This document shows, piece by piece, positions 13,230 to 29,387 of a stretch of 56,588 bases of DNA. The stretch is from Bdellovibrionota bacterium (GTDB lineage: Bacteria; Bdellovibrionota; FAC87; UBA2466): NCBI GenBank assembly GCA_041736915.1, contig JBGSST010000238.1, forward strand, positions 1-56,588, in the 5' to 3' direction. Below the pieces are notes generated by a model. It searched no databases. It was not told where the DNA came from and saw only the letters and a program-made list of their open reading frames with translations. Position numbers and translations under genes: made by a program. Position 1 is the first letter of the stretch, and every line of letters begins with the position of its first letter.

Positions 13230-13946
13230 ATGAGTCGGGGAATCTTTGTCCTAGTAATGGGTTTGGCTTCCGCAGCGATGGGAAGTCCTTTGGACGGCAA
13301 GATTGGCCGGGCGGAACGCGTGGCGATCGTAGTGGTGGAGCTGGCCACTCACGCCCCGAAAGATCGGCGTTTCTTCTACGAGTTCGTGGAAGCGGCGGCG
13401 CACGCCGAAACCAAGAACCGGATTAAGCCGATTTACGGCAAGGTCGTCTTGCTTTCGGGGGTCAACGCCACTTTGCCCGCGCTGCAAAAAGCGATGGAGA
13501 GTGCGGCGAACGAAGATCGCGTGAAGGCGGTAGACATGTTCCTGCATCTGCACGGTAGCCCCGGCGGGATTTCGTTGCGGGACGGGCACCTCTCTGCGGC
13601 GAAGATCGCCGAGACTCTCTCCGCCGTGACTAAGCTGCCGGCCAAGCTGCGCGCTTTGAACTCCACCGCCTGCTGGGGAGCCACCCACATCAAAGATTTT
13701 CTGGCCGCCGGCTTCAAGGTGGCTAGCGGTTCGCGCAAGGTAAACGCAAACGGGGCCCACGACACTCCGGCGTTTCTTTCCAACTGGGGTAAAGGGGCCA
13801 CGTACTTTACCGCGCAAGAAAAAGGCAACGACTCGCGCTGGATCGCCTTCTACGACAAGATTGCCGGTAGCTGGGGCATGGGCGCGGTCGATAGCTTTAA
13901 GGAAGTCGAAGGCAAGTCGGACATTACGATTTCCGACGCGCCTTAA
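13230..13946 (+). CDS. Secreted hypothetical protein with clan-CD-like His-Gly / Ala-Cys pattern
   Basis: Signal peptide MSRGIFVLVMGLASAAMG. VDMFLHLHG (H108-G109) and LRALNSTAC (C148) each follow hydrophobic strands, about 40 aa apart. The 3' end overlaps the giant gene by 23 nt (convergent). Confidence 0.65.
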   Translation: MSRGIFVLVMGLASAAMGSPLDGKIGRAERVAIVVVELATHAPKDRRFFYEFVEAAAHAETKNRIKPIYGKVVLLSGVNATLPALQKAMESAANEDRVKAVDMFLHLHGSPGGISLRDGHLSAAKIAETLSAVTKLPAKLRALNSTACWGATHIKDFLAAGFKVASGSRKVNANGAHDTPAFLSNWGKGATYFTAQEKGNDSRWIAFYDKIAGSWGMGAVDSFKEVEGKSDITISDAP

Positions 13947-16900
13947 CTTTTACCGGAACCCTTTTCGGCTGCCGGGCCATCGCGAGACGGCCGACCAGCA
14001 GAGCCAGGATCAGGATCATCACGTTTAGCATAGCTCCCAGTCCGGGCTTGGCCGGTTGGGCGGAGTGTACGGCGGCGCACGAGCCGCTAGAGGAGGCGGC
14101 CGGGGCATTCGCCGACGGGCCCGGCACGGACGCCAGAATGCGATCGCCCGCAGACGGTATCTTAACCTTGAGCATCGGGTCGCCGAAAAGGGTCCAGCTT
14201 CCGGTAATGTCGGCCGAGCCGCCTCGCAGCTTCGCCATGCGAACCGAGTCGCCAAGCCGCGCTTCCGGATGAGTGACGATGTACTCGTACAGGGCGTCTT
14301 GAACGCGTACCTGGAGGTCCGGAACGGTGAGCGTAGTCGAGGCAAACATGGCCACCGCGCCGCCGTGCCCGTTGAAGAGTAGCTTGTCGGCTAAGCTCAA
14401 CGTTGCGGGGTCCGCGTCGTAGTACATACCGTTCAAGCAGTTCATGGCGACTACGATCGGCAGCTGGGTATTGGTCAGCCCTTCCGCATCGTCGTTGTTA
14501 AACACGTTGAGGTCCGACCACACATTCTCGGCGCCGTGGCCGAGGAAATGAATGAACAGCGCGCCGTTATTGAACGAGTTCAGGATCGCATTCTTAAAGG
14601 CCGCATCGCCAAGCACGCTGCGCTTAACGAGGTTGACCGTGGTGTACTGGTTCCACTGGCCGGGCAAGAGCGAAGCCAGGCGTTCGGCCTTCTCGTCGAA
14701 CTTCTCGCCGCCGTACAACTCGGTGTCGCTGAGCAGGGTAAAGCGTTGGGCCGCGTCGCCCGTCGGACTGGTGGCGCCGCTTTCGTAGGTGATCACCTTT
14801 TCGATATAAGTCTCTACCGCCCGTACCGTGCCGCCCGGGATACGGCCGATGGCCAACGCCGGAGCGTCCGAGCCTTCGGTGAGCGCGACGTAGAAGTTGT
14901 CGTTACCGTAGTCCACCGCTTGGCCCTTGCTGAAGTAAGTCGGTACGCCGCTGGCGAGACCGTAGCCAAGCTGATTCTTAGGGTCTAACGAGGCATCGCC
15001 GATTAGCACCACGTACTTGGGCGCCGGGGCCTGCCAGTTGGCGATGGAGTAGGCGATGAAGTCTTTGATCGCCTGCGGAGATCGAACTCCCTGGCCAAAC
15101 TCCATGAAGATATCTTCGGTTGGTACCAAAGCCGTGCGCGCACCGTTCGATCGGCGCCATTCGGCGAGCCGCGCCGCCGCCGAGAGGAGTCGCCGGGGAC
15201 CGATGTAAAGCACGTCGGCTCCCTGAGCGAGTCCCTTCCAGTTACTGCCCTGATTGAGCTCTAACGCCCACGGTGAAAACACCGCGGAATCCGCAACGAC
15301 CACTAGGCGGCGGCCAAGCGAGCTGCTAGCCGGCGTTGTGGCAAACTTCACGGCGAAGATACCGTCGTTATCGGTGATGACCGCGTTGCTGATTAGCGCG
15401 GTACCCGTGATTTGCGAGATGTCGTACACCGCGATCGCGCCGGACGACAATCCGTCGACCAGCATATCCTTCCCGGCCTGCGTGTTTTGAATGTCGGCAA
15501 AACCGCTGTCCACGCGGAAAGTGTGTGGATAATCCACGGTCATACGCTCGATGTTTACTACGTCATAGTCGCCCGACGGCACTAAATCGCCCAGCACCCG
15601 TACTTCGATCTGGTTGCGGCCGGCGACGAACATCGATGCCGGGACCGTGAACTCCATCGAGTAGGGTTGGTTTGATTGAAAAACGTGGTCTCCCAGCGAG
15701 CTGGCCGAGCCGTTCACGTATAAACCAAGGTGGTGCACCGGATTGTTAAGCACGGCGCCTTTACCGCCCTTTACGGACAGACGAATGAGCACGTGCCCGG
15801 TAGACGCCAAGTTGGGCAGATCGAACTCGGGCTTCAGCGAAGCATCGCCCGGCGAAGTCTCCGGAGCATAAATCCGGCCCCAGTAAATATGTTCGACGTT
15901 GTCCGCGATGGGCTCGTTAAAGAGCGCGATGCTGGCGTTCTTTAGCTCGATACGACGGCGGAATGCGGTTTGCGTGGAGTCGACGTTGGTGGGCGTGCCA
16001 TCCACGTCATCCATACGCAGGCCGTTCACGGAATCCACGTACAGAACGAGTGAGTTGCGGTCCGACGTATGAACATCGAAATACGGCGCAAAGAAGCGAA
16101 TCTCATCGCCCGGCGAGAAATTCGCACCTGCGGCCAAAACCTGGAGCGGAAGCTCACCCATCTTCGAAAACAGACGTAATTTATCGACGTTTGCCCCCGC
16201 GAACGGGCCGTCCACGCCGGCGGCGACTAAATCTGAGTAGCTAAGCTTGTACATGCCCGACTTACGAAGGTGAATCTTGAGGCCGCCTTCATAACCCCAG
16301 GGGCCGCTTTCCGTAACCGGTGCGCCTACGTTCCAGTTAGGCGCGCCCGAGAGATGAACGTCGAAGGTGATCTGCGAAATGGCATTCGCCACGCGCGTGA
16401 CCGGATTGTACTTAACCGGACGCACCACGATGGGGAGGTAGTACAGCCCCTGATTTTCGACAATCTCTTGGAACTCCACCGGCTCCGACGGTAGCGACTG
16501 GTTGGTAGTGTAGAAAGCGGTGTCGATTTCGCGTGACGAGATGAGCGCGCCATTCACGACGGTCCAGGTGCGGGCCGCGACTATGTCGATTGACGTCGTA
16601 TCGGAGGCCGTACGCGACACTTCCGCGAAGCTCGCGGCGTCCGCCCCGGGAACTTCGACGAGCACTACGCGTTCCGGAAGCTCGGGCTTTCCGCCTTCGG
16701 TGGTCGAAGCGTAACCTTCGATCGCAAGCTGATCGTAACCCACCATATCGGACGCTGACCTTACGAAGGCCGGCACATCGATACGCAAGCGCAATGAGTT
16801 CTTCGTTTTTGCCAGCTGAGTGACCCCCGGAGCCACGGTCACGATGCCGGGAGTCGTGTCATTCAGTGAGGGGGCTCCACCGCCACTCGTGTTGGTACTT

Positions 16901-19900
16901 ACGATGGCGCCCGAGCTAGCCGCCGGCACTACGCCGAGCGAGTTGAGCGGAGTGGCCGATACGGGGCCGTGAAACTTGCGCTTACCATTCACCGCGATGT
17001 CTTCCAGACGGTAGTAGTACGTTACGCCGTTAGTGACGCCCGAATCACGGAAGTCGTAGTTACCGTGCACCGTTCCGCTCTGGATTGGATTACGAATGAG
17101 CGTCGGGTTGACCTGCGCGTAACCATCGCTGGGGCTGACGCTGCGGTAGATGTTGAAACCTCGGTGCGCCGATTCCTGACCCGTTTGCCACAGCAGGCGA
17201 ACGACTCCGTTGTACGGCTCGGCTTTAAAAGCCTGCGACAGCGATACCGGCGACGATGCATTGGAGATCGTGGCTCCGCAGTTGGTCATCGAGACTTTGG
17301 TGGCTGGGTCGGGAATTCCGACCGCGAATTGGAAATCGCCGAACCAGTTGGTGAAGTTCACCGTCTGGTTACTGCAGCCCGTGGATGCCAAGAGGTAATA
17401 GGTTTCGCTGGGGTCGGGAGGCGAACCATCGGGGCCCCAGTTGAAACCGACGTAGTCGGCGCCGGACGGCAGAGTGCCGGTAGTATTCATCTGAATGCCG
17501 TACACATCGCTGGGTGCACAAAATGAGGGGCTCGGAATTTCGCGTAGCTGTCCGCCGGCCAAACTCGGCACGTTGGTCGTGCCGGTGATCTGCATACCCG
17601 GACAGGTCAGCCATTCGACGAGCCAGCCGTCGAGGTCGAGGTTTCCGGAAGTGGCCACGAAAGACCACCGGCCCGTGCCGCCACCGGAGTGGGTCATCGT
17701 CGCTTTATTGCTCGTCAGCTGGGGGTAGCCATCATTGACCCCGCCAAGCTTCAAAGTGCCGCCCGCCACGGTAAAGGTCGTGGAAGGGGCCACCGCTACG
17801 GTACTACCGCCGTCAACCTGGAAAGTGGCCGAGCTTAGCGTAGCCGCGTCCGGTAAAGTCAGAGTGTCGCCATTGCGAACATTAAAGATAAAGTTCTGGC
17901 TCGCGGGGATCTCAAAATGGTTGATCGTGAGGTTGTTGTTACCGATGTACACATACCCGCCAGCCGTCTTGTTGAACACGAGGTAGTCGAGGGCGGACGA
18001 GCTTTGGAGCGTTTGGTTGGTCACCGTCGATCCATCGTCCAGGATCGTGATCGTGGCCGTGGCGCTCCCTTGGATGATCGTTCCGGTGTTGGTGAGGGAT
18101 CCATATACGCTCAACGTCTGGCCTGAGTTGATCGTGAGCGTTCCGTTACCAATGGTAACCGACTTACAAACGGCTCCGACGGCGTTGATGATGGGCGAGT
18201 TCGTGGCGTTGTTGATCACACAGTTCCGGGTCGCATCGGGAATGATGGTATTGGGTGACCAGTTGAGCGGATTGAACCAGTCCGTCGAGACCGCGCCAGT
18301 CCAATTCACCGTATTACCAATGATCGTTAGTGTACGACCCGATTTAGGCGGGGCGAAGGACCCGTTAAAGCTATAGCCTTCGCTGTTCACCACGTCGCCG
18401 GACGTCCCTATCTTGGCGATGAGGGTAGCGCCGGAGGTCGCCGCCGAAGCTACGTCAAACTCGATGTAGACGCAGCGTTGGGGTGGCGACGTCAGATCCG
18501 ACTGCACCGTGACGCCGGTCAATCCACTGAACGTAATGGAGGGAGGGCTACCCGAAAAGGTTAAGGCCGTACCCACCTGAGTACCGCCCGAGCCGGAGCA
18601 CGCAGCGTCGTAGTAAAGTCGAGCGCTCGACACATCGGATGAAGAGCCCGTACCGTCGAGGGTCACTTTGACCGAGGTTAGGTCGGTGTTGTCGTAGACT
18701 CCCGGATCGGTTTGCTGAAACGACCACCAGCCGGCGCGTAGGGCAGTGTCGCCCTGGTTCGTGTTGTTCGCTCCGGAAGTGGCGGTGTGCACTCCCGATT
18801 GGGTGCCGCTGGTGTTGATGGCCGCTCCGCCCAAGGTCGCCGTTACCGAGAAGGTGTTGGTGGTCGGGGCCGGCGAAGCAGCCACGTAGTAGGTGGTGGC
18901 CGGAGCAAGCCCAGTCGGCAGCGCTCCCGTGGTCGAGAAAACGACGGAGGCGCCGGCAATTAGCCCGTGCGACGTGTACGTTACTACCCCGGGGTTGGCG
19001 ATAGTGATCGTGACCGTGCCGGAGGCATCCACCGATGCGAGCTTCAAAGTGGTAGTGGGGGTCGCCCAGGTGACAATGTATGAAGGGTCGGTGTCAAAAG
19101 CGTCGCCGGTCAAGTTGCCGCTGTACGCATCAATGGTGAGCGTTCCCGCGGCTACCGCGCCGCCGGTAACTACTGATTGGGCTCCGGTGGCGGGCGAACC
19201 GTCTAGATCGAACGTCATGTTGTCCCACGCGTTGCCGGGCACCTGCCGATTCAGCGTAATCATGACTGGGTTGGTGCCGATCGGATAAGTGAACGCGCCA
19301 TTCTGTAGGTAGTGGGTGGCGTCAATCGTAGCCCCGGAGCCAATGGTGACGCCGGCTACGGCCAGACGGTTGAACGAGTAGTACTGCGCCTTGATCGTTC
19401 CGCTAACACTTACCGCGCAGCCGGTAGTGGTTCCGGTGCAGGAGAACGATGCGGGCTGCGAGGAATTGCCGACAATCTCGAGCGTACCGGAGGCTCCAAC
19501 CGTAAGTGTCCGCCCATCCCCGAGGATGAGGTAGGCGCCCGGATCAATTTTGAGGGTGCCCCCGTTGACGTTTATGTTGCCCGCCACCGTTAAGGTATTG
19601 CCCGCGGTAATGCGTAACGTTCCCGCGGACAGGGTTAGGTCTCCCGTCATCGAAAAGTCGCTGTTCACCGTTACCGTGCCGCTGCCGGCGGAATTGTTGA
19701 TGGTAACTCCGCCAGGGAAGGTCGTTTCGGCGTAGATACTCTGATTGGCGGTAGTCGAAGCGAAGGTGATGTTGCCGTTCGTGGCGGTCGTAAAGTTGTA
19801 CGAGCTTCCGATTTCCAGTGAACCTAGCACCGTGAACACGTTGGTCGTGTTGTTCCAGGACAAACGGCCACTGTCCGGCAGCGTAACGTTGTTACAGGTG

Positions 19901-22900
19901 CGGTTGCCGTTCAGTACGGGATACGAGTACGCCGGACCGATCTGACAATCGTCCGTAGTCGCGGGCAGCCCCGTCGGCGTCCAGTTTTGGGTATTGAAAT
20001 CCCAGTTTGTGGCGCCGGCGGCACCGTTCTGTGCGTTACCCCCACCCCAGATTTTAGTGGATACCCCACCGACGGTAACGGTGGAGATCGGACCCTGCAC
20101 CGGAGGACCATTGGTGCTGGGAAACTGATAGTTCTGCGAGTTCACCACGTCTTCGGTGGACGCAATCTTTACCTGTAACGTGGAGTTCAGGCGCGCATTC
20201 GACGAGGTCGCGAGCAGAACGTGAATGCACTTGGGCGTAGTATCGCTCAAAGTGATCACGCCACCGCCTAACGATAGAGTCGCCACCGCCGGATTATTGA
20301 CGAAGGTGAGGTTCGACCCAATCTGGGTATCGACGCCGGCGTTGTAGACGCAGTTCGCACTGGTATCGGCGTACACTTTCGCACTGGCTACGTCCGAAGC
20401 GGCGTTGGTTCCACCCAGGGTGAAGGTAATCGAAGTAATATCGCTCGCCGTTCCTACGCCGTTCAAGCTGAAAGCAAAGGTCGCAAAGAGGGTGTCCGAA
20501 GAACTACGGCCGATCGTGGCCGGCGGGTTACCGCCTGCGGTGGCATTCGCCAGCTGTAATCCGACCGGCGCCTGACTTCCCCAATTGATTTTGTTACCGG
20601 GGTCGGTCTCATACGCCGTGTCTCCAAATCCTGACCAATCCGACACCGTCACCGCCGTGCCCGTATATGCGGTGGCCTGGAAGTTCTTGATGTTTCCGAA
20701 AGCGTAGTCATCGAAGAAGCCAAGACCAGTCGGGTTCGGGCTGCTAGGAAGATTCTTCGCCGTGTTTAGGGTGATCGCAAAGCCACCACTGGCGAGGTAG
20801 TGAAACTCGCCGTTTGAAATAGTCTGGATGCTATCGGAGCCGGCCGTCGTGATGTTCAGGCCGGGCGCCGTCGTGCGGCTAATGGAAAAATAGTTTGCGT
20901 TAATTGAGCCCTGAACGTTGAGCGCAAAGCTAGAGCTGCCGTCGATGGCGTCAAGTTTCGCTACGGCGCCGGAGTTGCCGATGATCTGAAGCACTCCGCC
21001 GGGCTTAACCGTCATCGATTTACCGTTTCCAATCAGCACCGATCCACCGGCGCTAATTTTGAGCACGCCGCTTACTTCGATACCGCCGGCCGCGGTGAGC
21101 ACCGCTCCGTTCTGAATTTCCAGCGTAGCGCTCGCGGGAATCGTGAGCAGATCGTTAGTGTTGGAAAGGGTTAATCCTGACTGCACTTTGATCGTTCCCG
21201 CTCCGCTAGCGATCGCGAACGATTCGCTCACGGTGAACGTGCTCGGCATGTAGACGGTCGTAGAGTTTGTGATTAGCAGCTTGCTTAACGGATCGACGTT
21301 ATCCAGAGTCTGCTCAGCAGTTCCGGCCATCTTTAGCAGGAAACCCGATCCCGTCGTCAGTGAACCGGCGTTTTGGTTCGTGAAGAACTCTCCGGTTATG
21401 GTTAACACGCGTCCACCCTGAAGAGAGTGAGTCCCGGTTCCGGTGCTCGTCACGGTGAGCGGTCCACCATCCGAGGTGGCCGCTAGAGAAAAAGTGTTCG
21501 CGGCTGGCGCCGGAGCGGCGGCGATGTAGTAGACGGTGTTCAGCGCTAAGCCCGCGGGTAAGGTGCCGGTAGTCGTTAGTGTGACGGGGGTACCGGCCGA
21601 AAGCCCGTGCCCAGTCAGCGTAAACACTGAGGGGCGACGTCCGGTATGCGTGCCGGTTCCGGTGGTTTGCAACGAAAGCGGAACGCCGCCCGCCGTTCCC
21701 GACAGGTAGAAAGTGTTGGCGGTCGTGGCGGGGGCCGCGAGCACGTAGTACGGAGTGCCCGAAGTGATCCCCGTCGGAAGCGCTCCGCCTGAGTTGGTGA
21801 AGGTCACAACCTCGCCGGCGGCGATTCCGTGGGCCGTCCAGTTGATTAGGCCTGGTCGAGTGACGGTGTGTACTCCGGATTGGGTGCCACTGAATGTGAT
21901 GGACGTTCCCCCCACGGAAGGGGCGAGATAAAAGCTGTTGGTGAGGGGGGCGGGTGTCGCCGCCACGTAGTAGACCGTGCCCGGAGAGATGCCGGTGGGA
22001 AGTGCCCCCGTCGTGGAAAAGAAGACCGGGGTGCCGGCGGTCAACCCGTGAGCGGTATAATTTACTTTACTTGGTTGCTCAGCGGTATTTCCGGTGCCGT
22101 CCGAGGTCGTGGTGATAAAGGTGCCGCCAATGGTGGCGGTGACCGAGAATGAATTAGCCGTAGGCTCCGGGACGGCCGCCACATAGTAAATGGTAGCGGC
22201 CGTGAGCCCGCCGGGCATGGTGCCCGCGAATCGTACCGGATCCCCAACCGCCAGGCCGTGGGCAGTCCAGCGGACTGCATTGCGAATGCCCGTGTTGCCG
22301 CCGCTGCCGGTAACGTTGGTAAAGCCTAATCCATCCGATGTGGCCGACACGCCGAAGGAGTTCGCCGTAACCGGCAAAACGCTCGAAACGTAGTACGTCG
22401 TGGTGGTGTTAAGCGGCGCATCCGCCGTAGTTACGCGAAAGGAATCACCCGCCACGAGTCCGTGATTGGTCCAGCGAATCGCGTGTCGCTGAATGGTGAG
22501 GTTCGTATAGTTCGTGGCTCCGGCGGCATTAATCACCGCTCCGCCGGGGGTGGCGGCTAGTTGAAAGTTGTCGGTGCCACCGCCCGCCGGGTTGATGACG
22601 TAGTAGACGGTACTCGTGCTGAGTTCAGGGGGGAGCGTGCCGGCGGTAAAGCGGACGGGATCGCCAGCGACCAGTCCGCAGTTGTTCCAGGTCACACGAT
22701 CGGTAGTCGCGGAGAAGGAAGCGGTGATGAGCTGAGTGGTCACGACCGTCGTGGCAATATCGGCATCCACCATCGTCACCGCACCGGAGTTAGGAATGCT
22801 CGTCGTGACCGTACCGCTCGTGCCGGCCGTGACCGTAACGGTAGCCGTTGCCCCCACGGCCGCGGTGAAGGTGGGCGCGGTCGGGGTGGCCGTCATCGTG

Positions 22901-23265
22901 CCCGAGACTATTCTCAAACACGACAAGCTATAGCTAGCGTTGGGATAAATGGGGACACGCCAGTCAGCTTGGATATACGCATACTCGGTCGAGGCATTGG
23001 GAACGTTGTTGGGTTCCCAATTACCGGCGCTGTTCCAATCCGTGGTGCCTAAGTCCGGCTCCCAAACGAGCTGCGTCGCCGGATTGTCACTGACGCCGCC
23101 GCCGTTCTGACAGCATGCCCCGGTACCGAGCGTACACGCCGCCTGCGCGCTCTGACTCATCGCGGTTAACGCGATGGCGAGCGAAAAAAGAAGTCGGAAA
23201 ATTTTTGAACCGTGCGCTTTCAAACGTACCTCGTCGTGAAGGAGCCTCAGTCTTCTTTTCGGCAT
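13924..23265 (-). CDS. Giant (3113 aa) secreted surface protein: tandem repeats + beta-helix-like modules + peptidase C25 (gingipain-like) domain + C-terminal sorting signal
   Basis: Uninterrupted 9.3-kb ORF with signal peptide KIFRLLFSLAIALTAMSQSAQA. A TTG at 23223 preceded by GAGG is an alternative start. The C25 region spans ~aa 2655-3035 (nt ~14161-15303), with GRIP, FLGH-G (His2910, nt 14536-14538) and VAMNC (Cys2943, nt 14437-14439). Both codons were verified in the sequence. Confidence 0.9.
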   Translation of the reverse strand: MPKRRLRLLHDEVRLKAHGSKIFRLLFSLAIALTAMSQSAQAACTLGTGACCQNGGGVSDNPATQLVWEPDLGTTDWNSAGNWEPNNVPNASTEYAYIQADWRVPIYPNASYSLSCLRIVSGTMTATPTAPTFTAAVGATATVTVTAGTSGTVTTSIPNSGAVTMVDADIATTVVTTQLITASFSATTDRVTWNNCGLVAGDPVRFTAGTLPPELSTSTVYYVINPAGGGTDNFQLAATPGGAVINAAGATNYTNLTIQRHAIRWTNHGLVAGDSFRVTTADAPLNTTTTYYVSSVLPVTANSFGVSATSDGLGFTNVTGSGGNTGIRNAVRWTAHGLAVGDPVRFAGTMPGGLTAATIYYVAAVPEPTANSFSVTATIGGTFITTTSDGTGNTAEQPSKVNYTAHGLTAGTPVFFSTTGALPTGISPGTVYYVAATPAPLTNSFYLAPSVGGTSITFSGTQSGVHTVTRPGLINWTAHGIAAGEVVTFTNSGGALPTGITSGTPYYVLAAPATTANTFYLSGTAGGVPLSLQTTGTGTHTGRRPSVFTLTGHGLSAGTPVTLTTTGTLPAGLALNTVYYIAAAPAPAANTFSLAATSDGGPLTVTSTGTGTHSLQGGRVLTITGEFFTNQNAGSLTTGSGFLLKMAGTAEQTLDNVDPLSKLLITNSTTVYMPSTFTVSESFAIASGAGTIKVQSGLTLSNTNDLLTIPASATLEIQNGAVLTAAGGIEVSGVLKISAGGSVLIGNGKSMTVKPGGVLQIIGNSGAVAKLDAIDGSSSFALNVQGSINANYFSISRTTAPGLNITTAGSDSIQTISNGEFHYLASGGFAITLNTAKNLPSSPNPTGLGFFDDYAFGNIKNFQATAYTGTAVTVSDWSGFGDTAYETDPGNKINWGSQAPVGLQLANATAGGNPPATIGRSSSDTLFATFAFSLNGVGTASDITSITFTLGGTNAASDVASAKVYADTSANCVYNAGVDTQIGSNLTFVNNPAVATLSLGGGVITLSDTTPKCIHVLLATSSNARLNSTLQVKIASTEDVVNSQNYQFPSTNGPPVQGPISTVTVGGVSTKIWGGGNAQNGAAGATNWDFNTQNWTPTGLPATTDDCQIGPAYSYPVLNGNRTCNNVTLPDSGRLSWNNTTNVFTVLGSLEIGSSYNFTTATNGNITFASTTANQSIYAETTFPGGVTINNSAGSGTVTVNSDFSMTGDLTLSAGTLRITAGNTLTVAGNINVNGGTLKIDPGAYLILGDGRTLTVGASGTLEIVGNSSQPASFSCTGTTTGCAVSVSGTIKAQYYSFNRLAVAGVTIGSGATIDATHYLQNGAFTYPIGTNPVMITLNRQVPGNAWDNMTFDLDGSPATGAQSVVTGGAVAAGTLTIDAYSGNLTGDAFDTDPSYIVTWATPTTTLKLASVDASGTVTITIANPGVVTYTSHGLIAGASVVFSTTGALPTGLAPATTYYVAASPAPTTNTFSVTATLGGAAINTSGTQSGVHTATSGANNTNQGDTALRAGWWSFQQTDPGVYDNTDLTSVKVTLDGTGSSSDVSSARLYYDAACSGSGGTQVGTALTFSGSPPSITFSGLTGVTVQSDLTSPPQRCVYIEFDVASAATSGATLIAKIGTSGDVVNSEGYSFNGSFAPPKSGRTLTIIGNTVNWTGAVSTDWFNPLNWSPNTIIPDATRNCVINNATNSPIINAVGAVCKSVTIGNGTLTINSGQTLSVYGSLTNTGTIIQGSATATITILDDGSTVTNQTLQSSSALDYLVFNKTAGGYVYIGNNNLTINHFEIPASQNFIFNVRNGDTLTLPDAATLSSATFQVDGGSTVAVAPSTTFTVAGGTLKLGGVNDGYPQLTSNKATMTHSGGGTGRWSFVATSGNLDLDGWLVEWLTCPGMQITGTTNVPSLAGGQLREIPSPSFCAPSDVYGIQMNTTGTLPSGADYVGFNWGPDGSPPDPSETYYLLASTGCSNQTVNFTNWFGDFQFAVGIPDPATKVSMTNCGATISNASSPVSLSQAFKAEPYNGVVRLLWQTGQESAHRGFNIYRSVSPSDGYAQVNPTLIRNPIQSGTVHGNYDFRDSGVTNGVTYYYRLEDIAVNGKRKFHGPVSATPLNSLGVVPAASSGAIVSTNTSGGGAPSLNDTTPGIVTVAPGVTQLAKTKNSLRLRIDVPAFVRSASDMVGYDQLAIEGYASTTEGGKPELPERVVLVEVPGADAASFAEVSRTASDTTSIDIVAARTWTVVNGALISSREIDTAFYTTNQSLPSEPVEFQEIVENQGLYYLPIVVRPVKYNPVTRVANAISQITFDVHLSGAPNWNVGAPVTESGPWGYEGGLKIHLRKSGMYKLSYSDLVAAGVDGPFAGANVDKLRLFSKMGELPLQVLAAGANFSPGDEIRFFAPYFDVHTSDRNSLVLYVDSVNGLRMDDVDGTPTNVDSTQTAFRRRIELKNASIALFNEPIADNVEHIYWGRIYAPETSPGDASLKPEFDLPNLASTGHVLIRLSVKGGKGAVLNNPVHHLGLYVNGSASSLGDHVFQSNQPYSMEFTVPASMFVAGRNQIEVRVLGDLVPSGDYDVVNIERMTVDYPHTFRVDSGFADIQNTQAGKDMLVDGLSSGAIAVYDISQITGTALISNAVITDNDGIFAVKFATTPASSSLGRRLVVVADSAVFSPWALELNQGSNWKGLAQGADVLYIGPRRLLSAAARLAEWRRSNGARTALVPTEDIFMEFGQGVRSPQAIKDFIAYSIANWQAPAPKYVVLIGDASLDPKNQLGYGLASGVPTYFSKGQAVDYGNDNFYVALTEGSDAPALAIGRIPGGTVRAVETYIEKVITYESGATSPTGDAAQRFTLLSDTELYGGEKFDEKAERLASLLPGQWNQYTTVNLVKRSVLGDAAFKNAILNSFNNGALFIHFLGHGAENVWSDLNVFNNDDAEGLTNTQLPIVVAMNCLNGMYYDADPATLSLADKLLFNGHGGAVAMFASTTLTVPDLQVRVQDALYEYIVTHPEARLGDSVRMAKLRGGSADITGSWTLFGDPMLKVKIPSAGDRILASVPGPSANAPAASSSGSCAAVHSAQPAKPGLGAMLNVMILILALLVGRLAMARQPKRVPVKVKARRKS
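18775..18987 (-). repeat. Isolated seventh copy of the ~70-aa HGL/YYV repeat
   Basis: aa ~1427-1497: VVTYTSHGLIAGASVVFSTTGALPTGLAPATTYYVAASPAPTTNTFSVTATLGGAAINTSGTQSG. Confidence 0.7.
21418..22695 (-). repeat. Six tandem ~67-73-aa coding repeats (W/Y-T-x-HGL-x-x-GD/T-x-V...LP-x-G...T-x-YYV...N-x-F-x-L/V)
   Basis: aa ~191-616 of the giant protein. Examples: IRWTNHGLVAGDSFRV..TYYVSS..ANSFGVSAT, VNYTAHGLTAGTPVFF..VYYVAA..TNSFYLAPS, VFTLTGHGLSAGTPVTL..VYYIAA..ANTFSLAAT. Confidence 0.8.
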
Positions 23266-23422: not shown

Positions 23423-23445
23423 TCCCCCGAATGGGGGATTTTTTT
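23423..23445 (+). terminator. Hairpin TCCCCC-GAAT-GGGGGA followed by T7 (intrinsic-terminator shape on the plus strand)
   Basis: Read directly. The T-run abuts or overlaps the stop codon of the minus-strand rSAM gene. On the minus strand the hairpin has no U-tract. Confidence 0.3.
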
Positions 23446-24473
23446 CAACTTTCGAAAACCTGCCGTTTGATCTCGCCCAGCTCCATCAGGAAGGGAACGG
23501 GGGCCATGCGATCCCCGGTTTCGGCGCCGGCCATGCCGGGGCAATGATCGCAGAACGATCCGCTACCGCACGAGGTGTCGAACTTGAGATCGCGAACGCG
23601 GTAACCGCGCAACTTCTCGGCCTGCGGTGAATGCCACAAGGTTTGGAAGTCGTGCTCGCGCAAGTTTCCGATCGGCTCGCGCACTTCGAGGCAGGTTAAA
23701 AGATCGCCGTACGGATTCACCGCGCATTTTCCTCGACCGGCGTTACACACCGGTGCGTTAGGATCGTCGACCGGATTGGGAGAAGGGCCGCGCCCCTTTT
23801 CCTTCATGCGAGTGTAGTAGCGACGAAGCTGATCGGGGGTGGCCCGGGTTGCGGTAGAGCCCAATGACGAATCATTTTTCGGAGTGACCAGCGGATCGAA
23901 CTGAATCGGAATTTCCATGCGATCGGCCCAGCTCTGGAGATCGAAACAGCCGTCGATATTTTCTTTCGTCAGCAAACAGTTCACGCCAAGCTGAATGTTG
24001 GCCTTCTTGAGCCGATCGATCGCGGCCACGGTGCGCGCGTGCGACCCGATTCGGCGGGTCATGCGATCGTGAATGGCGGCCTCGGCCGAGTAGAGACTTA
24101 CCGTCACCTGGTAGAAACCGAGTTCCGCAATTCTCCCGGCGGCCTCTTCGTCGAGCAGAAGGCCATTGGTGATGAGACTCATGGCAAAATTTTTCTTGGC
24201 GCCATACTCGGCAATTCCCCAAAACTGGGGATGCATCATCGCCTCGCCGCCGATCAAAATAAGGTAAAGCGTTTTGGCGTCGGCGAGCTGATCGACGATG
24301 CCTTTCCATTCGGCAAGGTTGAGCGGTGGTCGTCCGTCCGCCCGATCGTCGAAGGTGGAAAGGTAGCAGTGGCCGCATCGTTCGTTGCAGTGGTAGGTCA
24401 GCTCCAGCGTCGCCTGCAACGGCAGCAACGACTGCGAGTAGAGATCCCTCCACGCATTGACGATGGACATCAA
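23445..24473 (-). CDS. Radical SAM/SPASM-domain peptide maturase
   Basis: CNERCGHCY (CxxxCxxC) near the N-terminus. C-terminal auxiliary-cluster motifs CNAGRGKCAVNPYGDLLTC and CGSGSFCDHCPG. Start is TTG 24473 or ATG 24470, a 4-nt overlap with the upstream PqqD-like gene. Confidence 0.9.
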   Translation of the reverse strand: MMSIVNAWRDLYSQSLLPLQATLELTYHCNERCGHCYLSTFDDRADGRPPLNLAEWKGIVDQLADAKTLYLILIGGEAMMHPQFWGIAEYGAKKNFAMSLITNGLLLDEEAAGRIAELGFYQVTVSLYSAEAAIHDRMTRRIGSHARTVAAIDRLKKANIQLGVNCLLTKENIDGCFDLQSWADRMEIPIQFDPLVTPKNDSSLGSTATRATPDQLRRYYTRMKEKGRGPSPNPVDDPNAPVCNAGRGKCAVNPYGDLLTCLEVREPIGNLREHDFQTLWHSPQAEKLRGYRVRDLKFDTSCGSGSFCDHCPGMAGAETGDRMAPVPFLMELGEIKRQVFES

Positions 24474-24733
24474 ACCTCTCGGCGAATTAGTTTGAGCGAT
24501 TCCAGCTCAGTGAAAAAACGTTCGGCATCGCTTTGTGCGATAACCGGCTCGACGTCGAACGTGTCGCTGAGTCGCGCGGCAATCTCAGTGCACGTGGATT
24601 TTCCGTCGGCATTACGCCAAAGAAAGCTCGCGACTACGTTCAGCTCGTGAATGGTTCCGGCCTTGGGCGAGAGGACCACGACCCGTCCATCGACTTCACG
24701 CCACGGCAGATTCGAAATGTGGTGAGGCACCAT
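24470..24733 (-). CDS. PqqD-family peptide chaperone (RiPP recognition element)
   Basis: REVDGRVVVLSPKAGTIHELNVVASFLWRNADGKSTCTEIAARLSDTFDV...AERFFTELESLKLI is a typical PqqD/RRE pattern. ATG at 24733 gives 87 aa. The track ORF extends to 24844 with a Cys-rich extension. Confidence 0.8.
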   Translation of the reverse strand: MVPHHISNLPWREVDGRVVVLSPKAGTIHELNVVASFLWRNADGKSTCTEIAARLSDTFDVEPVIAQSDAERFFTELESLKLIRREV

Positions 24734-24774
24734 CCGCGAATTAAAACAAATGCCATCGCAGGGGGCAAGGCACG

Positions 24775-25737
24775 TTGCCGCAACGCAAGGCGTTTTCGTG
24801 CCGTCGCGCGTACCGCTATACTTCGGCGATGGATCGGCGGACATTTTTGAAAAGTTGGGCGGCAGCCGCTCACCCCCACACTTTAGAGCAGGGGGCCGAG
24901 CGTCTTGCCCTATCGATTGCGGGCGTCCGTTTCGACCTTCTCACCGCCGACGCCCGATTGGCGCGGCTGATGGGAAATTACTTCGCGGAGTACCGGGGCG
25001 AAGGCGAAGCGCGGCTGGCGGTGCATTTGTTCCCGCTAACCCGCACCGATTTGCCAAAGCTGTGGGATGACGCCGATCCCGATTTTCATGGCGACGGTGA
25101 CTTCGTGGTCCAGCGGGACTTCGGGGCCCGACGGGAACGGTTGGCGGATGGCCGCACGCGGGTGCTGGCCGCCCTTCATCCGGAAGAGCCCGAGGATGCC
25201 GTTCACAATCTGCTTCGCTGGGTAATGCCCGGTTTTCTCCTCGAGCACCGGTGTTTTCTGATGCACTCGGCGAGCGTGGTTTTTCGTGACGAGGGGTATC
25301 TCTTCTACGGCCAAAGCGGCGCCGGAAAGTCCACGACGGTGGCTCTGATCGCTGGCCACGAAGAGGGGGCCTCGGTTCTCGGTGATGACGCGGGCATCAT
25401 CGAATGCCGTGACGGTCGGGCCTGGCTGCACTCCGCTCCGCTCGGCAGTGGCTTTTCACGCCTTGCGCCGCGCAAGACGCGCGTTCCGCTGCGGGGGATT
25501 TTTTCTCTGGAGCAGTCTAGCCTCACCGAAAAGCAACCCATGCCGACGGCGGAGGCGGTGCGCACGCTTCTCGCCAGCGCCATGACGCCGGACTTTTCCG
25601 TGGATGTCGACGGGCGATTTGATCTGGCGGTTGAATTTGCCGGTTCCAGTTGTGGCGTGCGCCGGTTAAAATTCCAGAAAAGCGCCGAGTTTTGGACGAT
25701 GATTTCGACAACAGAAAAAGGGGTTGGTGGTGTCTGA
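24775..25737 (+). CDS. HPr-kinase-like P-loop protein (putative peptide Ser kinase)
   Basis: HSASVVFRDEGYLFYGQSGAGKSTTVALIAG...VLGDDAGII mirrors the HprK C-terminal domain pattern H..v...G.G.LI.G.SG.GKS....L...G..LV.DD. Start is ambiguous: TTG 24775 or ATG 24829. Confidence 0.75.
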   Translation: MPQRKAFSCRRAYRYTSAMDRRTFLKSWAAAAHPHTLEQGAERLALSIAGVRFDLLTADARLARLMGNYFAEYRGEGEARLAVHLFPLTRTDLPKLWDDADPDFHGDGDFVVQRDFGARRERLADGRTRVLAALHPEEPEDAVHNLLRWVMPGFLLEHRCFLMHSASVVFRDEGYLFYGQSGAGKSTTVALIAGHEEGASVLGDDAGIIECRDGRAWLHSAPLGSGFSRLAPRKTRVPLRGIFSLEQSSLTEKQPMPTAEAVRTLLASAMTPDFSVDVDGRFDLAVEFAGSSCGVRRLKFQKSAEFWTMISTTEKGVGGV

Positions 25738-25909
25738 CAAGAAAAATGAAACGGCGGAGAAACCGGACAAGCTGAAGTATCAGAAGCCGGAGATCAAAAC
25801 CGAGCCGCTCACCACCGTCGCCGCCCTCTGCAACGGCAGCGCCACAGGCGGCCGCAAAGCTACGACTGGCGCTCCGAACTTTTGCCAGGTCGCTAAGCTG
25901 AAGTCGTAA
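25724..25909 (+). CDS. Candidate RiPP precursor peptide (59-61 aa, two Cys, C-terminal Ser)
   Basis: VVSDKKNETAEKPDKLKYQKPEIKTEPLTTVAALCNGSATGGRKATTGAPNFCQVAKLKS. AAGGGG lies 6 nt upstream of GTG 25730, the best start. Overlaps the kinase-like gene stop and ends 7 nt before the peptidase gene. Contains a YxxPx(I/L) leader-like motif. Confidence 0.6.
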   Translation: MVVSDKKNETAEKPDKLKYQKPEIKTEPLTTVAALCNGSATGGRKATTGAPNFCQVAKLKS

Positions 25910-25915
25910 ATTTTC

Positions 25916-26359
25916 ATGGATTGGATTGCTCTCGAAGGCAAGAGCATGATGCCGTTTCTAGATGCGGGCGATCGAGTCGGCGTGAAATGGCTGTCGGGGG
26001 ACGACTGGAACGACCTCGTGGAAGGCGACGTCGTGTTGGGACGTAACCCCCAGGGAGGATGGATCCTCCACCGAATTTTGTCGTGCCCACGAGTCGCGGG
26101 AGAAAATCCCGAGTGGGTGACCAAGGGAGACTCTTCGATTACCGCCGAAACTTTCGCCCGCAATGAGCTTTGGGGCCGGGTGGTGGCGGTAAAGCGCGGC
26201 GAAGAGGGGCCCGAAATTTTACTGCAACGAAGTCGACTGGATTTTTGGATCGCCCGTTTTTCGCGGTACACGCAACTCACAAATTCCACCCGGCTCGCCA
26301 AGGCATTTTGCCGGCGCGCCGCCAGAGGACTGGGATGGCTAAGAAGGCGCTTCGCTTAA
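25916..26359 (+). CDS. S26B (SipW/Sec11/archaeal-type) signal-peptidase-like protease lacking an N-terminal TM anchor
   Basis: EGKSMMPFL (Ser10 box), GDVVL, WILHRIL (His52 box) and TKGDSS (cf. the TKGDNN box) occur in the SipW/Sec11 order. The protein starts directly at the Ser box with no hydrophobic anchor. Confidence 0.75.
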   Translation: MDWIALEGKSMMPFLDAGDRVGVKWLSGDDWNDLVEGDVVLGRNPQGGWILHRILSCPRVAGENPEWVTKGDSSITAETFARNELWGRVVAVKRGEEGPEILLQRSRLDFWIARFSRYTQLTNSTRLAKAFCRRAARGLGWLRRRFA

Positions 26360-27396
26360 AACAGATCCAGGCCGGCACGCTGGCCCTGCTGCGGCCGCAC
26401 ACGTTCATCGCCGTGCCGCCCGATCCGCGCATCCCCGCGGGCGCTTGGAAAGAGGCGTTCGCCTACGCCCAGCGCATTCACTCTGCCTTACCCTTTCTCA
26501 TTCAGATCGAAAGAGCCTCGCAAAAAGGGGCGTGGGGAAAATCGGTGTCGGCGGAAGAGCGCGTGTTTCTCTCCGAGGCGTTGCACCGCGATCGCATGTT
26601 TCTTGCGCTGCTCGATTGGGAGATGGAGAAAGCGGGCGAAGTTCTGGCCCGCGCCAAAGTTCCCGCCATCGTACTGAAGGGTATGGACCTCGCCCGGCGC
26701 TTTTATCCGGATCGCGTTTTTCGTCCGATGAGCGACATCGATCTGCTGGTGCGGGCGCGTGATTTTTCGAAAGTGGTTTCGCGTTTCGAAAGTGAAGGGT
26801 ACCAGGCCGTGGGCCGGCACTACCCCGGCCGTTTCCGAATAGAGCTCTGCCGGGACGAAGGACGGCCGGTCGTCGAGCTGCACAGTTTTCTACTGAAGGG
26901 CGACGACGCCGACTCGATGAAGGGAATCTGGAAGCGGGCCAAGGAGCCGGAGAACAATCCCTTTCCGGGAACTCTCGTGCTCGGTGACGAGGACCATCTT
27001 TTTTACTTGGGCGCGCACGCGGCGGTTCAGCACCTCATCGAGTCCCCCATCTGGCTGAACGACATTCACTTCGTGCTGCAGAACGGGGAGCCGGACTGGG
27101 ACAAGCTATTGAAAAAGATCGAGCAGCGCCGCAGCCATACCGCATTTTGGTTTTTATTCACGGTGCTCAAAGCGTGGGGCCATACGGCTCCCGACGATGT
27201 CATCGAGCGGCTCACGGCCGAGGTCGCGTCCGGCCGTCGAGCGGCGCTGTCCGTATTGGCGCCGCAGGAGAGGCTTTTCCCGTATGCCGGCCGCGGCTGG
27301 ACGTGGATGCTATCGGGCCGGTTTCTGCTGAAGGACAGTGCCCTGAGTGCGGTTCGGTACGCCATTGAGCGCCAGCTGGTGACGAGACCGGCGTAA
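26335..27396 (+). CDS. Nucleotidyltransferase family protein (uncharacterised NTP_transf_5-like, DIDLLV motif)
   Basis: AIVLKGMDLARRFYPDRVFRPMSDIDLLVRARDF...GY...VELHSFLL matches the family pattern. ATG at 26335 overlaps the peptidase gene end. Confidence 0.8.
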   Translation: MAKKALRLKQIQAGTLALLRPHTFIAVPPDPRIPAGAWKEAFAYAQRIHSALPFLIQIERASQKGAWGKSVSAEERVFLSEALHRDRMFLALLDWEMEKAGEVLARAKVPAIVLKGMDLARRFYPDRVFRPMSDIDLLVRARDFSKVVSRFESEGYQAVGRHYPGRFRIELCRDEGRPVVELHSFLLKGDDADSMKGIWKRAKEPENNPFPGTLVLGDEDHLFYLGAHAAVQHLIESPIWLNDIHFVLQNGEPDWDKLLKKIEQRRSHTAFWFLFTVLKAWGHTAPDDVIERLTAEVASGRRAALSVLAPQERLFPYAGRGWTWMLSGRFLLKDSALSAVRYAIERQLVTRPA

Positions 27397-27495: not shown

Positions 27496-29058
27496 CTAAA
27501 TGTCGCGGTTAAGCGCAGCCACAAGCTGCGACTTGAAACCGACCAAAAATCGGACCGCTCGCTCGCGCCAAGTAGATTTCCGAAGCTTCGGCATCGTTCT
27601 ATCTTCTGAGCCGCGCTGCTTTAGTGCGTAGCTTAGGAAACCGTGCTTTTCGGCGGTTAACACTCGAATCTCCCAGCCATGTTCTAGGCAAAAGTCATCC
27701 ACCGCCTGGAGCACCCCGTACCTAACTCCGGAGGTTGCGTTTCCTTCGACGTAATCGTGACCGGCAATAACCCCATCTTTCTTCACTTTTCTGAGGGAAA
27801 CTTCCAGCTCAAGCTTTGTGTTTCGGTAGGTATGGTCAGTGTCAATGTAGACCCAATCGAAGTAGTGATCGGGGAATTGGCCCAGGGTCTGGTGTGAGTA
27901 ACCTCTAAGGATCTCGATCCTCCCGAGGTTAATTTCAGAACGAAACTCATCTTGCACGCTCGTATGCTTGCTTTCGCCGAATCGTTCACTATCCCATGAA
28001 TCGATTAGGTAGAGTTTTTTCGGACGAACCACACGAAGTACTGCCTTCGAAAACTCACCTTCGTCGACCCCCATCTCGGCCCCTATGGAGTTTTTAGGGA
28101 GCAAATTTAAGAGATCTAGGCGAGTGGGCACCGTTCGGTAGTTTTTTTTATGCGTCCCTGGGCTCCGAACGTACTTGTCACAGCTCGTGCACGGGATGTC
28201 CGTGCGAGGCGGTTGCCGCCCCAACAGCATCTGCTTTGCGTAGCTCAATTTTTCTCCGGCAATGACCGCCGAAAGTCCGTCTGTAAAGGCATTGCCAAAG
28301 TCCCCCCAAGTGTTCACGCAACAACCCAGCACGCGACCGTCCCAATTGATTTGGGGACTATTCCACAACTGCTCACAGATCTCGGACAGGTAACTGGTGC
28401 CGGTTCTTTTTTTGAAGACTGATCGATTTCCCGCAACCAATCCATGCATGCGTGCAAATTTCTGGGGGGCTTTCAACGGAGAGAATTTATCGTCGCAGTT
28501 CAACTTCAGGAGGAATTCCATTCCCAATTCTTTGGAAAGCTCCCTTGCCTTATCCACCTCGTGTTGATTGTGACCAAAAGCCACGAACTGCCAAGTAAGC
28601 TTTGGTGTATCGGAGTGCAGTCTCTTCTTTACTGCAACCAGTCGTCGGAGGTTATCGACAACCCGGTCAAAGTTCCCGTTCACCCGGTACTGGGCGTAGG
28701 TGAACTGGCTAGCCCCATCGATGGAGAAGGTAATTCTTTTCACGCCGCATTTAACTAACGCCTCCATCACCTTCGCGGGGACGTGGTTAAAATTTACGCC
28801 GTTGGCCAGAGTGATGGCCACGTTCCTCTCGGCGCTAAACTCCAAGATCTCCACCAGGTCGGGATGCAAAAACACTTCGCCCCAATTCGAAAGTTCGATG
28901 GTCCGTATGTCGGGGTTTTCTTCGATCAATCGCCGATAGTTTTCCATTCCTATGAAGCCTGAACCCAAGTCTTTCCTGACTATTCCCTTGGCGGTAGGGC
29001 ACACGGGGCATTTGAGCTGGCAATGGGTGGAGATGTCTACCCTGACCGATTCTGGCAT
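27496..29058 (-). CDS. Radical SAM/SPASM-like domain fused to a class I SAM-dependent methyltransferase
   Basis: CQLKCPVCP (CxxxCxxC) at the N-terminus. Cys-rich mid region CEQLWNSPQINWDGRVLGCCVN...IPCTSCDKY. C-terminal MTase-like LYLIDSWD...WVYIDTDHTY...KDGVIAGHDY. The ATG at 29058 is preferred because the track ORF (to 29274) runs into repeat-derived sequence. Confidence 0.8.
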   Translation of the reverse strand: MPESVRVDISTHCQLKCPVCPTAKGIVRKDLGSGFIGMENYRRLIEENPDIRTIELSNWGEVFLHPDLVEILEFSAERNVAITLANGVNFNHVPAKVMEALVKCGVKRITFSIDGASQFTYAQYRVNGNFDRVVDNLRRLVAVKKRLHSDTPKLTWQFVAFGHNQHEVDKARELSKELGMEFLLKLNCDDKFSPLKAPQKFARMHGLVAGNRSVFKKRTGTSYLSEICEQLWNSPQINWDGRVLGCCVNTWGDFGNAFTDGLSAVIAGEKLSYAKQMLLGRQPPRTDIPCTSCDKYVRSPGTHKKNYRTVPTRLDLLNLLPKNSIGAEMGVDEGEFSKAVLRVVRPKKLYLIDSWDSERFGESKHTSVQDEFRSEINLGRIEILRGYSHQTLGQFPDHYFDWVYIDTDHTYRNTKLELEVSLRKVKKDGVIAGHDYVEGNATSGVRYGVLQAVDDFCLEHGWEIRVLTAEKHGFLSYALKQRGSEDRTMPKLRKSTWRERAVRFLVGFKSQLVAALNRDI

Positions 29059-29255
29059 CGTGGAGGTAACTATACCTGGTTTATCTATGTCGCGCTTTGC
29101 CTGTCTCGAAGGGAATCGGATGCCTTTGAATCCGTGATAACCGGAACTAAGCAACGCTGAAGCCCTCCGGCTCGACGGGAGCGGTTTAGCGGTCAGTAAT
29201 TTAGAAGCAGGAGCATTACGGCCGACCCGCCCAATGTGGTAGGGCGGCCCACCGG

Positions 29256-29387
29256 CGAGGTCGCGTCCGGCCATCGAGTGCCAGCTCGTTACGAAACCGG
29301 CGTAAGCGCCCCACCCCGATGGCGATCGCCCTATTGAACCAGCTCAAACACGAGGTGGCTGACCACCTCGTCGGCATATCCCGCCAT
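29256..29387. repeat. Right copy of the duplicated junction (deleted remnant of the NTase 3' end + intact lipase-like gene 3' end)
   Basis: See the left copy. This copy lacks the equivalent of 27244-27366 (123 nt). The deletion is bounded by the similar short sequences TCGAGCG and TTGAGCG. Confidence 0.8.

Follow-up and report, generated by a model that had tools for sequence, protein, structure and literature searches.

The locus studied here raises the question of what a signal-peptidase-like protein without a membrane anchor does among the genes of a peptide-modification operon. It lies on contig JBGSST010000238.1 (assembly GCA_041736915.1) of a Bdellovibrionota bacterium, and the window, that is, the whole stretch of 56,588 nucleotides that was analysed, encodes it as a 147-residue protein between the gene of a short precursor peptide and that of a nucleotidyltransferase (Table 1). 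A reading of the nucleotide sequence made without database searches (the sequence-only reading) had proposed a cytoplasmic, repurposed peptidase of the ER/archaeal signal peptidase type (S26B), acting as the dedicated leader peptidase of a peptide that is made by the ribosome and modified after translation (RiPP). According to the present analysis, the protein is most likely a soluble serine endopeptidase of the S26B fold with a predicted Ser10-His52-Glu78 triad, its proteolytic activity and its substrate being predicted as well. There is a good probability that it serves a RiPP cassette of six genes as the dedicated leader peptidase.

Peptidase class and fold

The translation opens MDWIALEGKSMMPFLDAGDRVGVKWLSGDDWNDLVEGDVVLGRNPQGGWILHRILSCPRVAGENPEWVTKGDSSITAETF. 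The four boxes attributed to it by the sequence-only reading were found at residues 8-13 (GKSMMP), 37-41 (GDVVL), 52-55 (HRIL) and 69-74 (TKGDSS), in the order known from Sec11 and SipW. As a single sequence, the peptidase gave no match in a Pfam scan and chance matches only in a phmmer search of the PDB sequences; a word-index search added a single relative (69-74% identity), whose 1.2-kb contig shows the same order of genes. An exhaustive HMMER profile search of 1.84 billion cluster representatives returned 415 matches below 1e-3 and 59 below 1e-10. Conservation was evaluated in an alignment of 60 family members, to which the counts out of 60 given below refer.

M11, P13, G37, H52, R53, G71 and D72 are invariant in this alignment, and K70, W25, W49, W86, G87, D109, I112, A113, S116, R133 and R143 are nearly so. 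S10 is kept in every member whose called start is upstream of it, and residue 10 is the commonest position of the Ser where the N-terminus is complete. An acidic residue stands six positions after the Asp of the KGD box in 58 of the 60 (Asp in 30, Glu in 28), the remaining two being artefacts of the regular expression. About 40% of the family's database entries begin at a Met after the catalytic Ser, the nucleophile thus being deleted (P0002, P0003, P0010, P0011, P0155 and about 20 others). Since the DNA of L001 (564-593, ATG) and L004 (7971-8000, GTG start) encodes the conserved MDWIxLxGxS upstream, the records without Ser are truncated gene calls. This is a practical warning for genome mining: gene callers often clip these peptidases just past the catalytic Ser.

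The window peptidase matched TIGR02228, the model for archaeal/ER-type signal peptidase I, with an E-value of 2.9e-6 and 27.2 bits (curated cut-off 51.85), and the SipW model NF046067 with 15.8 bits (cut-off 190). In the family, TIGR02228 was matched by 50 of the 60 members at E<0.01 (best 5.7e-13) and the bacterial S26A model by 28. Pfam PF00717, named 'Peptidase_S24', was also matched by 28; this Pfam family takes in Sec11/SipW-type enzymes as well. None of the 60 matched a LexA model of NCBIfam. Searching the PDB with the family profile gave SEC11C (3.7e-7) and SEC11A (1.1e-6), followed by SpsB, and no S24 entry at E<1. In these alignments the Ser, the His-Arg pair, the KGD box and the acidic residue at +6 are paired with their SEC11A/C equivalents.

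The fold was predicted with AlphaFold2 on the 60-sequence alignment (pLDDT 96.1, pTM 0.90), a first model from a two-sequence alignment (pLDDT 60) having been discarded in its favour. The model begins with a beta strand. A comparison with Sec11, suggested by the sequence-only reading, ended with SEC11A/C as the best PDB matches: the top Foldseek entries were 7p2p_A and 7p2q_A, with a TM-score of 0.54, a root-mean-square deviation of 2.5 Å over 106 columns, probability 1.00 and E 6e-3. Behind them came the C-domain of the lambda repressor, then SpsB, LepB and SipA. Since the Foldseek E-values are modest, the fold result corroborates the assignment and does not decide it.

SipA of Streptococcus pyogenes is signal-peptidase-like and has no protease activity, and its place among the Foldseek matches brings up a non-catalytic, peptide-binding or scaffold subunit as an alternative. 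A degenerate relative at locus L043, with Asn in place of Ser and KID in place of KGD, shows that such versions occur. For the window protein this is very improbable, as the Ser, His-Arg, Gly-Asp and acidic residues are strictly kept in it and in its family.

Profile-to-profile comparison then included LppS, a leader peptidase resembling type I signal peptidases (SpI-like, SipW-like) that belongs to the linear polyphosphorylated peptide (LPP) RiPPs of Paenibacillus alginolyticus (Popov et al., Nat Commun 2026, PMC13381572). With hhalign, the family profile aligned to LppS with a probability of 97.8% (E 7.4e-13), to an anchored signal peptidase of Thermococci with 95.7% (E 9e-9), to the genome's own LexA with 80.6% (E 1.3e-5) and to its own LepB with 76.1% (E 2.3e-5). 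The ranking is LppS first, the anchored archaeal enzyme second, and LexA and LepB about level behind them. In the hhalign alignments, H52 stands opposite the catalytic Lys of the genome's own LexA (VKRY) and LepB (VKRAV). The Ser-Lys dyad of S24 and S26A is not present, the general-base position being taken by the invariant His-Arg.

An S24 self-cleaving domain of the LexA/UmuD kind or a housekeeping Sec signal peptidase could be argued from the PF00717 matches and from the hhalign score of the genome's own LexA. We give this hardly any chance: a His replaces the Lys general base, a DNA-binding domain is missing and no LexA model was matched; the candidate substrate encoded next to it lacks a hydrophobic signal core, and the peptidase itself lacks an anchor. 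In addition, the same genome carries LexA and two canonical LepB genes, so the peptidase is not the housekeeping enzyme. Its assignment to the His-type S26B branch, and to neither S24 nor S26A, is supported by the invariant H52-R53 and by SEC11A/C at the top of both the profile and the fold searches. The S26B type put forward by the sequence-only reading holds in this respect, and the S24 placement that it had named as the contrary outcome was not obtained.

The missing anchor and the location of the enzyme

The sequence-only reading had noted only nine residues before the catalytic Ser and no N-terminal transmembrane helix, leaving an anchor from an alternative upstream start to be checked. 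A longer N-terminus is impossible, since the frame is closed by a TAA at 25907-25909, 9 nt 5' of the ATG, the same TAA that ends the precursor gene. Inside the protein, where the Ser is residue 10 as stated, the highest 19-residue Kyte-Doolittle mean is 0.40, against a level of about 1.6 over 19 residues expected for a transmembrane helix.

The same holds for the family. Only 1 of the 60 members contains any 19-residue stretch with a mean of at least 1.6, and an N-terminal anchor was found in 0 of the 60. Weaker homologues of 160-200 residues were considered as membrane-anchored SipW-like enzymes, and this was rejected: among the 87 more distant representatives (ranks 65-151) a transmembrane-like stretch precedes the Ser in one, and they carry a hydrophilic extension of 20-40 residues instead. 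As the nearest 150 or so representatives almost all lack an N-terminal anchor, soluble proteases of the S26B fold may be a sizeable and mostly unannotated group.

Fusions of the peptidase domain to other enzymes occur elsewhere in the phylum, in families other than that of the window. At L036 (G293:C30), a single open reading frame (ORF) of 491 residues joins a radical S-adenosylmethionine (SAM)/SPASM enzyme to the peptidase, with PF04055, PF13186 and, above its cut-off, PF00717. At L042 (G302:C66; also G392:C14), an HprK-like kinase and the peptidase form a protein of 418 residues, a call that rests on profile matches in the genomes and on visible motifs, the peptidase part having been missed by Pfam. 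The third case is a SAM methyltransferase-peptidase fusion in an open frame of 409 codons at L031 (G234:C1). Since the fusion partners all use cytoplasmic cofactors, the peptidase domain is placed in the cytoplasm. A cytoplasmic location of the window peptidase, as originally proposed, is supported by these relatives together with its own lack of an anchor and of a signal peptide.

The C-terminus is where a membrane contact might be sought. The second-tier relatives L024, L026, L032, L034, L036 and L038 end in a hydrophobic helix, a candidate membrane anchor, with Kyte-Doolittle means of 2.71 in L036 and 1.99 in L026. At this position the window clade has an Arg-rich amphipathic helix instead. 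In the window peptidase the two helices of the predicted hairpin show hydrophobic moments of 0.55 and 0.68 and a negative mean hydrophobicity, and residues 100-147 contain 12 Lys/Arg against 2 Asp/Glu.

The same enzyme might therefore work at the inner face of the membrane, with the hairpin in the membrane plane (a tail anchor in the distant relatives) and leader removal coupled to export. The hydrophobic helices of the second-tier relatives and the amphipathic ones of the window protein speak for this, as does the poor solubility reported for LppS (PMC13381572). We nevertheless regard it as unlikely: the last helix of the window clade is of negative mean hydrophobicity with seven Arg, AlphaFold2 is confident in a compact monomer, and the cassette has no conserved exporter gene (L004, L006, L007). 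A soluble, cytoplasmic enzyme is preferred.

The precursor, the cassette and the predicted cut

The 61-residue peptide encoded directly upstream of the peptidase is the candidate substrate. Its start is ambiguous (TTG 25724, GTG 25727 or GTG 25730). Comparison with the orthologue in L001, where the gene opens with ATG-GTG-TCT, speaks for GTG 25727 (MVSDKK...). The leader of the window peptide carries YQKP, with Y19 at nt 25778-25780, and is hydrophilic: the maximum 8-residue Kyte-Doolittle mean is 0.64. It has no h-region and is not a Sec signal peptide. All 23 precursors fit the pattern YxxP-9x-[VIFY][AG][AS]|[LVISA]CNG with Tyr at -16. Around the junction, position -3 is Val, Ile, Phe or Tyr, position -2 is Ala or Gly, and -1 is Ala in 22 of the 23. 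All 23 also share GG[RK]K, a second Cys and a Ser at the C-terminus, in a core of 24-29 residues, mostly 27. The window core has 27 residues, two Cys and the C-terminal Ser.

The same geometry, with a hydrophobic residue at -3 and a small one at -1, is known from the leader of LppA, the proven substrate of LppS, which has YxxP with Tyr at -16, followed by F-3, E-2 and T-1 (PMC13381572). No site of the present precursors other than the leader-core junction combines invariant small residues with the spacing of LppA. Cleavage of the window precursor is predicted between A34 and L35 (nt 25825|25826, TVAA|LCNG), a site we consider probable. S26B-type signal peptidases prefer small residues at -1 and -3, and VAA is compatible with this preference.

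The peptidase was found to be part of a conserved cassette. A radical SAM/SPASM gene and a PqqD gene on the reverse strand are followed on the forward strand by the genes for an HprK-like kinase, the precursor, the peptidase and the NTP_transf_5 protein, the last two overlapping by 25 nt. The same six genes occur on three contigs with unrelated flanks (L004, L006, L007). Family members are present in 53 of the 401 genomes of the host phylum, and 29/29 loci from other genomes have two or more cassette partners no further than 1.5 kb from the peptidase, in variable gene order. Kinase and peptidase are strongly linked over the 401 genomes (both in 39, kinase only in 7, peptidase only in 14, neither in 341; Fisher test, p = 4e-35), the peptidase being found in 39 of the 46 kinase-positive genomes. 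The cassette thus recurs across the phylum, with the peptidase gene as one of its fixed members.

Table 1. Features of the peptidase locus; coordinates are positions in the window.
Feature	Coordinates	Strand	Basis or remark
Radical SAM/SPASM maturase	23445..24473	-	PF04055 + PF13186; beside RRE (RiPP recognition element) also in L004, L006, L007
PqqD-family RRE	24470..24844	-	PF05402 E 9.7e-15; shorter start at 24733 likely
HprK-like (ScmC-like) P-loop kinase	24775..25737	+	weak TIGR04355 and TIGR04249 matches; orthologues with PF27840 ScmC
Precursor peptide gene, 61-residue ORF	25724..25909	+	conserved in 23 loci
Anchorless SpI-like (S26B-type) serine peptidase, predicted leader peptidase	25916..26359	+	147 residues; ORF, family, AlphaFold2 model, LppS homology
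Ser10 codon, predicted nucleophile, GKSMMP box	25943..25945	+	opposite S29 of LppS and, in SEC11, the Ser of SGSMEP
His52 codon, predicted general base, WILHRIL box	26069..26071	+	opposite H68 of LppS and, in SEC11, the His of IVHRV
KGD box (K70 G71 D72) to Glu78, predicted third triad residue	26123..26149	+	aligns with LppS D93 and SEC11A D122
C-terminal helical hairpin, residues 107-119 and 126-146, Arg-rich, amphipathic	26234..26353	+	DSSP on the AlphaFold2 model
NTP_transf_5 nucleotidyltransferase (ATG 26335)	26335..27396	+	PF14907 E 5.5e-32; same overlap and order in L001, L004

With these components the following course can be proposed. The PqqD-type RRE would bind the YxxP motif of the precursor and present the leader to the enzymes. 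The radical SAM/SPASM enzyme, the HprK-like kinase and the nucleotidyltransferase would modify the core with its two Cys and C-terminal Ser. The peptidase would then cut at the predicted junction, 16 residues past the Tyr, and free the 27-residue core. Both the dependence of cleavage on the RRE and the order of the steps are inferred.

Since the substrate and the site of the window peptidase are predictions only, it has to be considered that the protease is active but serves the pathway otherwise, for instance in core trimming, quality control of unmodified precursor or immunity, the leader then being cut by an unlinked protease. In the LPP system, unphosphorylated precursor is a poor LppS substrate (PMC13381572), which indicates that such enzymes can discriminate between modification states. 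Such another function is nonetheless improbable, given that no other conserved protease was found in the cassette (L004, L006, L007 and 29 further loci) and that invariant small residues at the LppA spacing occur at the leader-core junction only. A dedicated leader peptidase cutting after VAA, as the sequence-only reading had it, agrees with the cassette linkage and with the invariant Tyr(-16)/-3/-2/-1 geometry shared with LppA, and is retained here as a prediction. It defines a predicted enzyme-substrate pair, with TVAA|LCNG as the site, that is open to a simple co-expression assay.

Known systems, relatives and neighbouring genes

LppS offers the closest functional comparison in the profile ranking given above. 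Deletion of lppS leads to a build-up of phosphorylated precursor, and cleavage by LppS requires LppB and is lost in the S29A, H68A and D93A variants (PMC13381572). With the LppS sequence taken from Supplementary Data 1 of PMC13381572, BLASTP gave 33% identity over 97 residues (E 6e-12) and paired S10 with S29, H52 with H68 and W25 with F42, the last being a conserved residue that lines the -3 pocket of LppS (PMC13381572). The hhalign profile alignment pairs E78 with D93. Both are small S26B-type enzymes (about 150 residues) without a predicted transmembrane anchor, the hydropathy peak of LppS (Kyte-Doolittle 1.32) also being below transmembrane grade. In both clusters the peptidase is accompanied by a separate RRE that binds YxxP, by a kinase of the HprK-like type and by an NTP transferase, and the precursors agree in the Tyr at -16, the hydrophobic -3 and the small -1 residue. 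The window PqqD protein aligns to LppB without gaps and keeps the residues equivalent to N33 and D70, which the supplement flags in its RRE alignments, the discussion having the Tyr fixed by a hydrogen bond (PMC13381572).

Several observations weigh against a leader peptidase of the LppS kind. The window peptidase scores under the curated cut-offs of TIGR02228 and of Pfam. BLASTP pairs E78 with LppS E94 and not with D93, so the assignment of E78 as third residue depends on the alignments from hhalign and with SEC11. At this triad position the window clade has Glu, as opposed to Asp in LppS. The cut site was derived from spacing and conservation alone. Moreover, the N-terminal alpha1 helix of LppS contacts the LppB-leader sheet (PMC13381572). 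The window peptidase lacks this helix, with its Ser at residue 10 versus 29, and its docking to the RRE would need another surface. It has a conserved basic C-terminal hairpin that sets it apart from LppS. The assignment as leader peptidase is kept, at the good probability given at the outset.

The products would differ as well. The LPP core is a variable protein of 35-200 residues phosphorylated at Ser3, whereas the cores of the present precursors are two-Cys peptides of 24-29 residues that end in Ser and have no Ser at +3. Compared with the LPP cluster, the window cassette adds the radical SAM/SPASM enzyme and does without the MsbA-like exporter: the six-gene cassette contains no such gene, and the flanks of L004, L006 and L007 have no conserved one. 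Its host lies outside the Bacillota, to which the authors state that LPPs are restricted (PMC13381572). Their data set also contains uncharacterised anchorless SpI-like proteins beside RREs in Acidobacteriota, Myxococcota, Bacteroidota, Pseudomonadota and one Bdellovibrionota metagenome-assembled genome (MAG) (PMC13381572).

The sequence-only reading had called it unusual that this fold should be recruited for RiPP leader removal. That claim needs correcting: the recruitment is no longer unprecedented, since the role of LppS was demonstrated in a paper of May 2026 (PMC13381572). Of the six components of the window cassette, four are treated in that paper, the radical SAM enzyme not being among them. 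The present locus would extend the class of SpI-like RiPP leader peptidases beyond the Bacillota, to the Bdellovibrionota, in a cassette with a radical SAM enzyme.

A more specific, combined reading is advanced tentatively, the chances being against all its parts holding together. In it, the cassette would represent an undescribed RiPP class in which a radical SAM cross-link is placed on the two-Cys, 27-residue core. To this would be added a phosphorylation in the style of paeninodin and the LPPs, with nucleotidyl or glycosyl decoration of the C-terminal Ser. The peptidase, having lost alpha1, would engage the RRE-leader complex through its basic hairpin and cut with a Ser-His-Glu triad. If true, this would be a second, independent solution for coupling the S26B fold to an RRE.

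Other known systems share individual traits with the locus. S26B signal peptidases (SEC11A/C, yeast Sec11, Bacillus subtilis SipW and archaeal enzymes) have in common with the window peptidase the beta-barrel fold, the box order and the Ser-His-acid residues. The window peptidase differs from them in lacking the N-terminal transmembrane anchor, in an active site that would be cytoplasmic instead of extracytoplasmic, in a candidate substrate without a signal-peptide h-region and in scores below the TIGR02228 and SipW model cut-offs.

Another likeness is offered by SodX (TIGR02754), a small soluble cytoplasmic peptidase of the S26 clan with a single dedicated substrate, from which it cuts a short propeptide at the N-terminus. 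TIGR02754, the model of the nickel superoxide dismutase maturation protease, was weakly matched by 32 of the 60 members, far below cut-off. There is no SodN substrate at the window cassette, and the neighbourhood differs.

The lasso peptide proteins B2 and B1 are a functional analogue, the RRE B1 presenting the leader-core junction to a dedicated cytoplasmic protease. The leader motif bound by the lasso RRE is [Y/W]xxPx[L/V/I], and HprK-like kinases and nucleotidyltransferases are also found in lasso systems with phosphorylation, that of paeninodin for example (PMC13381572). B2, however, is a cysteine protease of the transglutaminase fold, and the window cassette has no lasso cyclase.

In addition, the kinase, the PqqD protein and the radical SAM/SPASM enzyme weakly match ScmC, ScmD and ScmE of the SynChlorMet (SCM) system, all far below the curated cut-offs. 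The SCM description is not known to cover a peptidase, a nucleotidyltransferase or an identified precursor. A literature search on SynChlorMet/ScmC and on the full enzyme combination found nothing relevant.

Two large genes adjoin the cassette. Next to the radical SAM gene, a protein of 3113 residues is encoded at 13924-23265 on the reverse strand; its counterpart in a MAG of the same genus (L004, 1-5213) has 3318 residues with Propeptide_C25 and Peptidase_C25 domains. As this gene is not beside the cassette in L006 and L007, the arrangement is within-genus synteny and the gene is not a cassette member. Directly after the nucleotidyltransferase gene, a 592-residue radical SAM + SPASM + Methyltransf_24 fusion is encoded at 27496-29274 (reverse strand). 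It is missing from that position in L004, L006 and L007, and so appears to lie outside the conserved cassette.

Two further relatives of the peptidase were noted. In an uncultured Porphyromonadaceae, a human-gut Bacteroidota MAG (L041, CABUVO010000002.1), a weak relative shares 28% identity over residues 4-94. A related-locus search with six family sequences yielded, apart from the MAG of the same genus, this doubtful match alone. At L043 (1296-2459, G220:C3), the degenerate relative mentioned above is the N-terminal, peptidase-like domain of a 387-residue ORF, with GMNMAP at the position of the Ser box. The downstream part of this ORF resembles the cassette nucleotidyltransferase by eye, with no Pfam match. 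The L043 protein may be a degenerate, non-catalytic member of the group.

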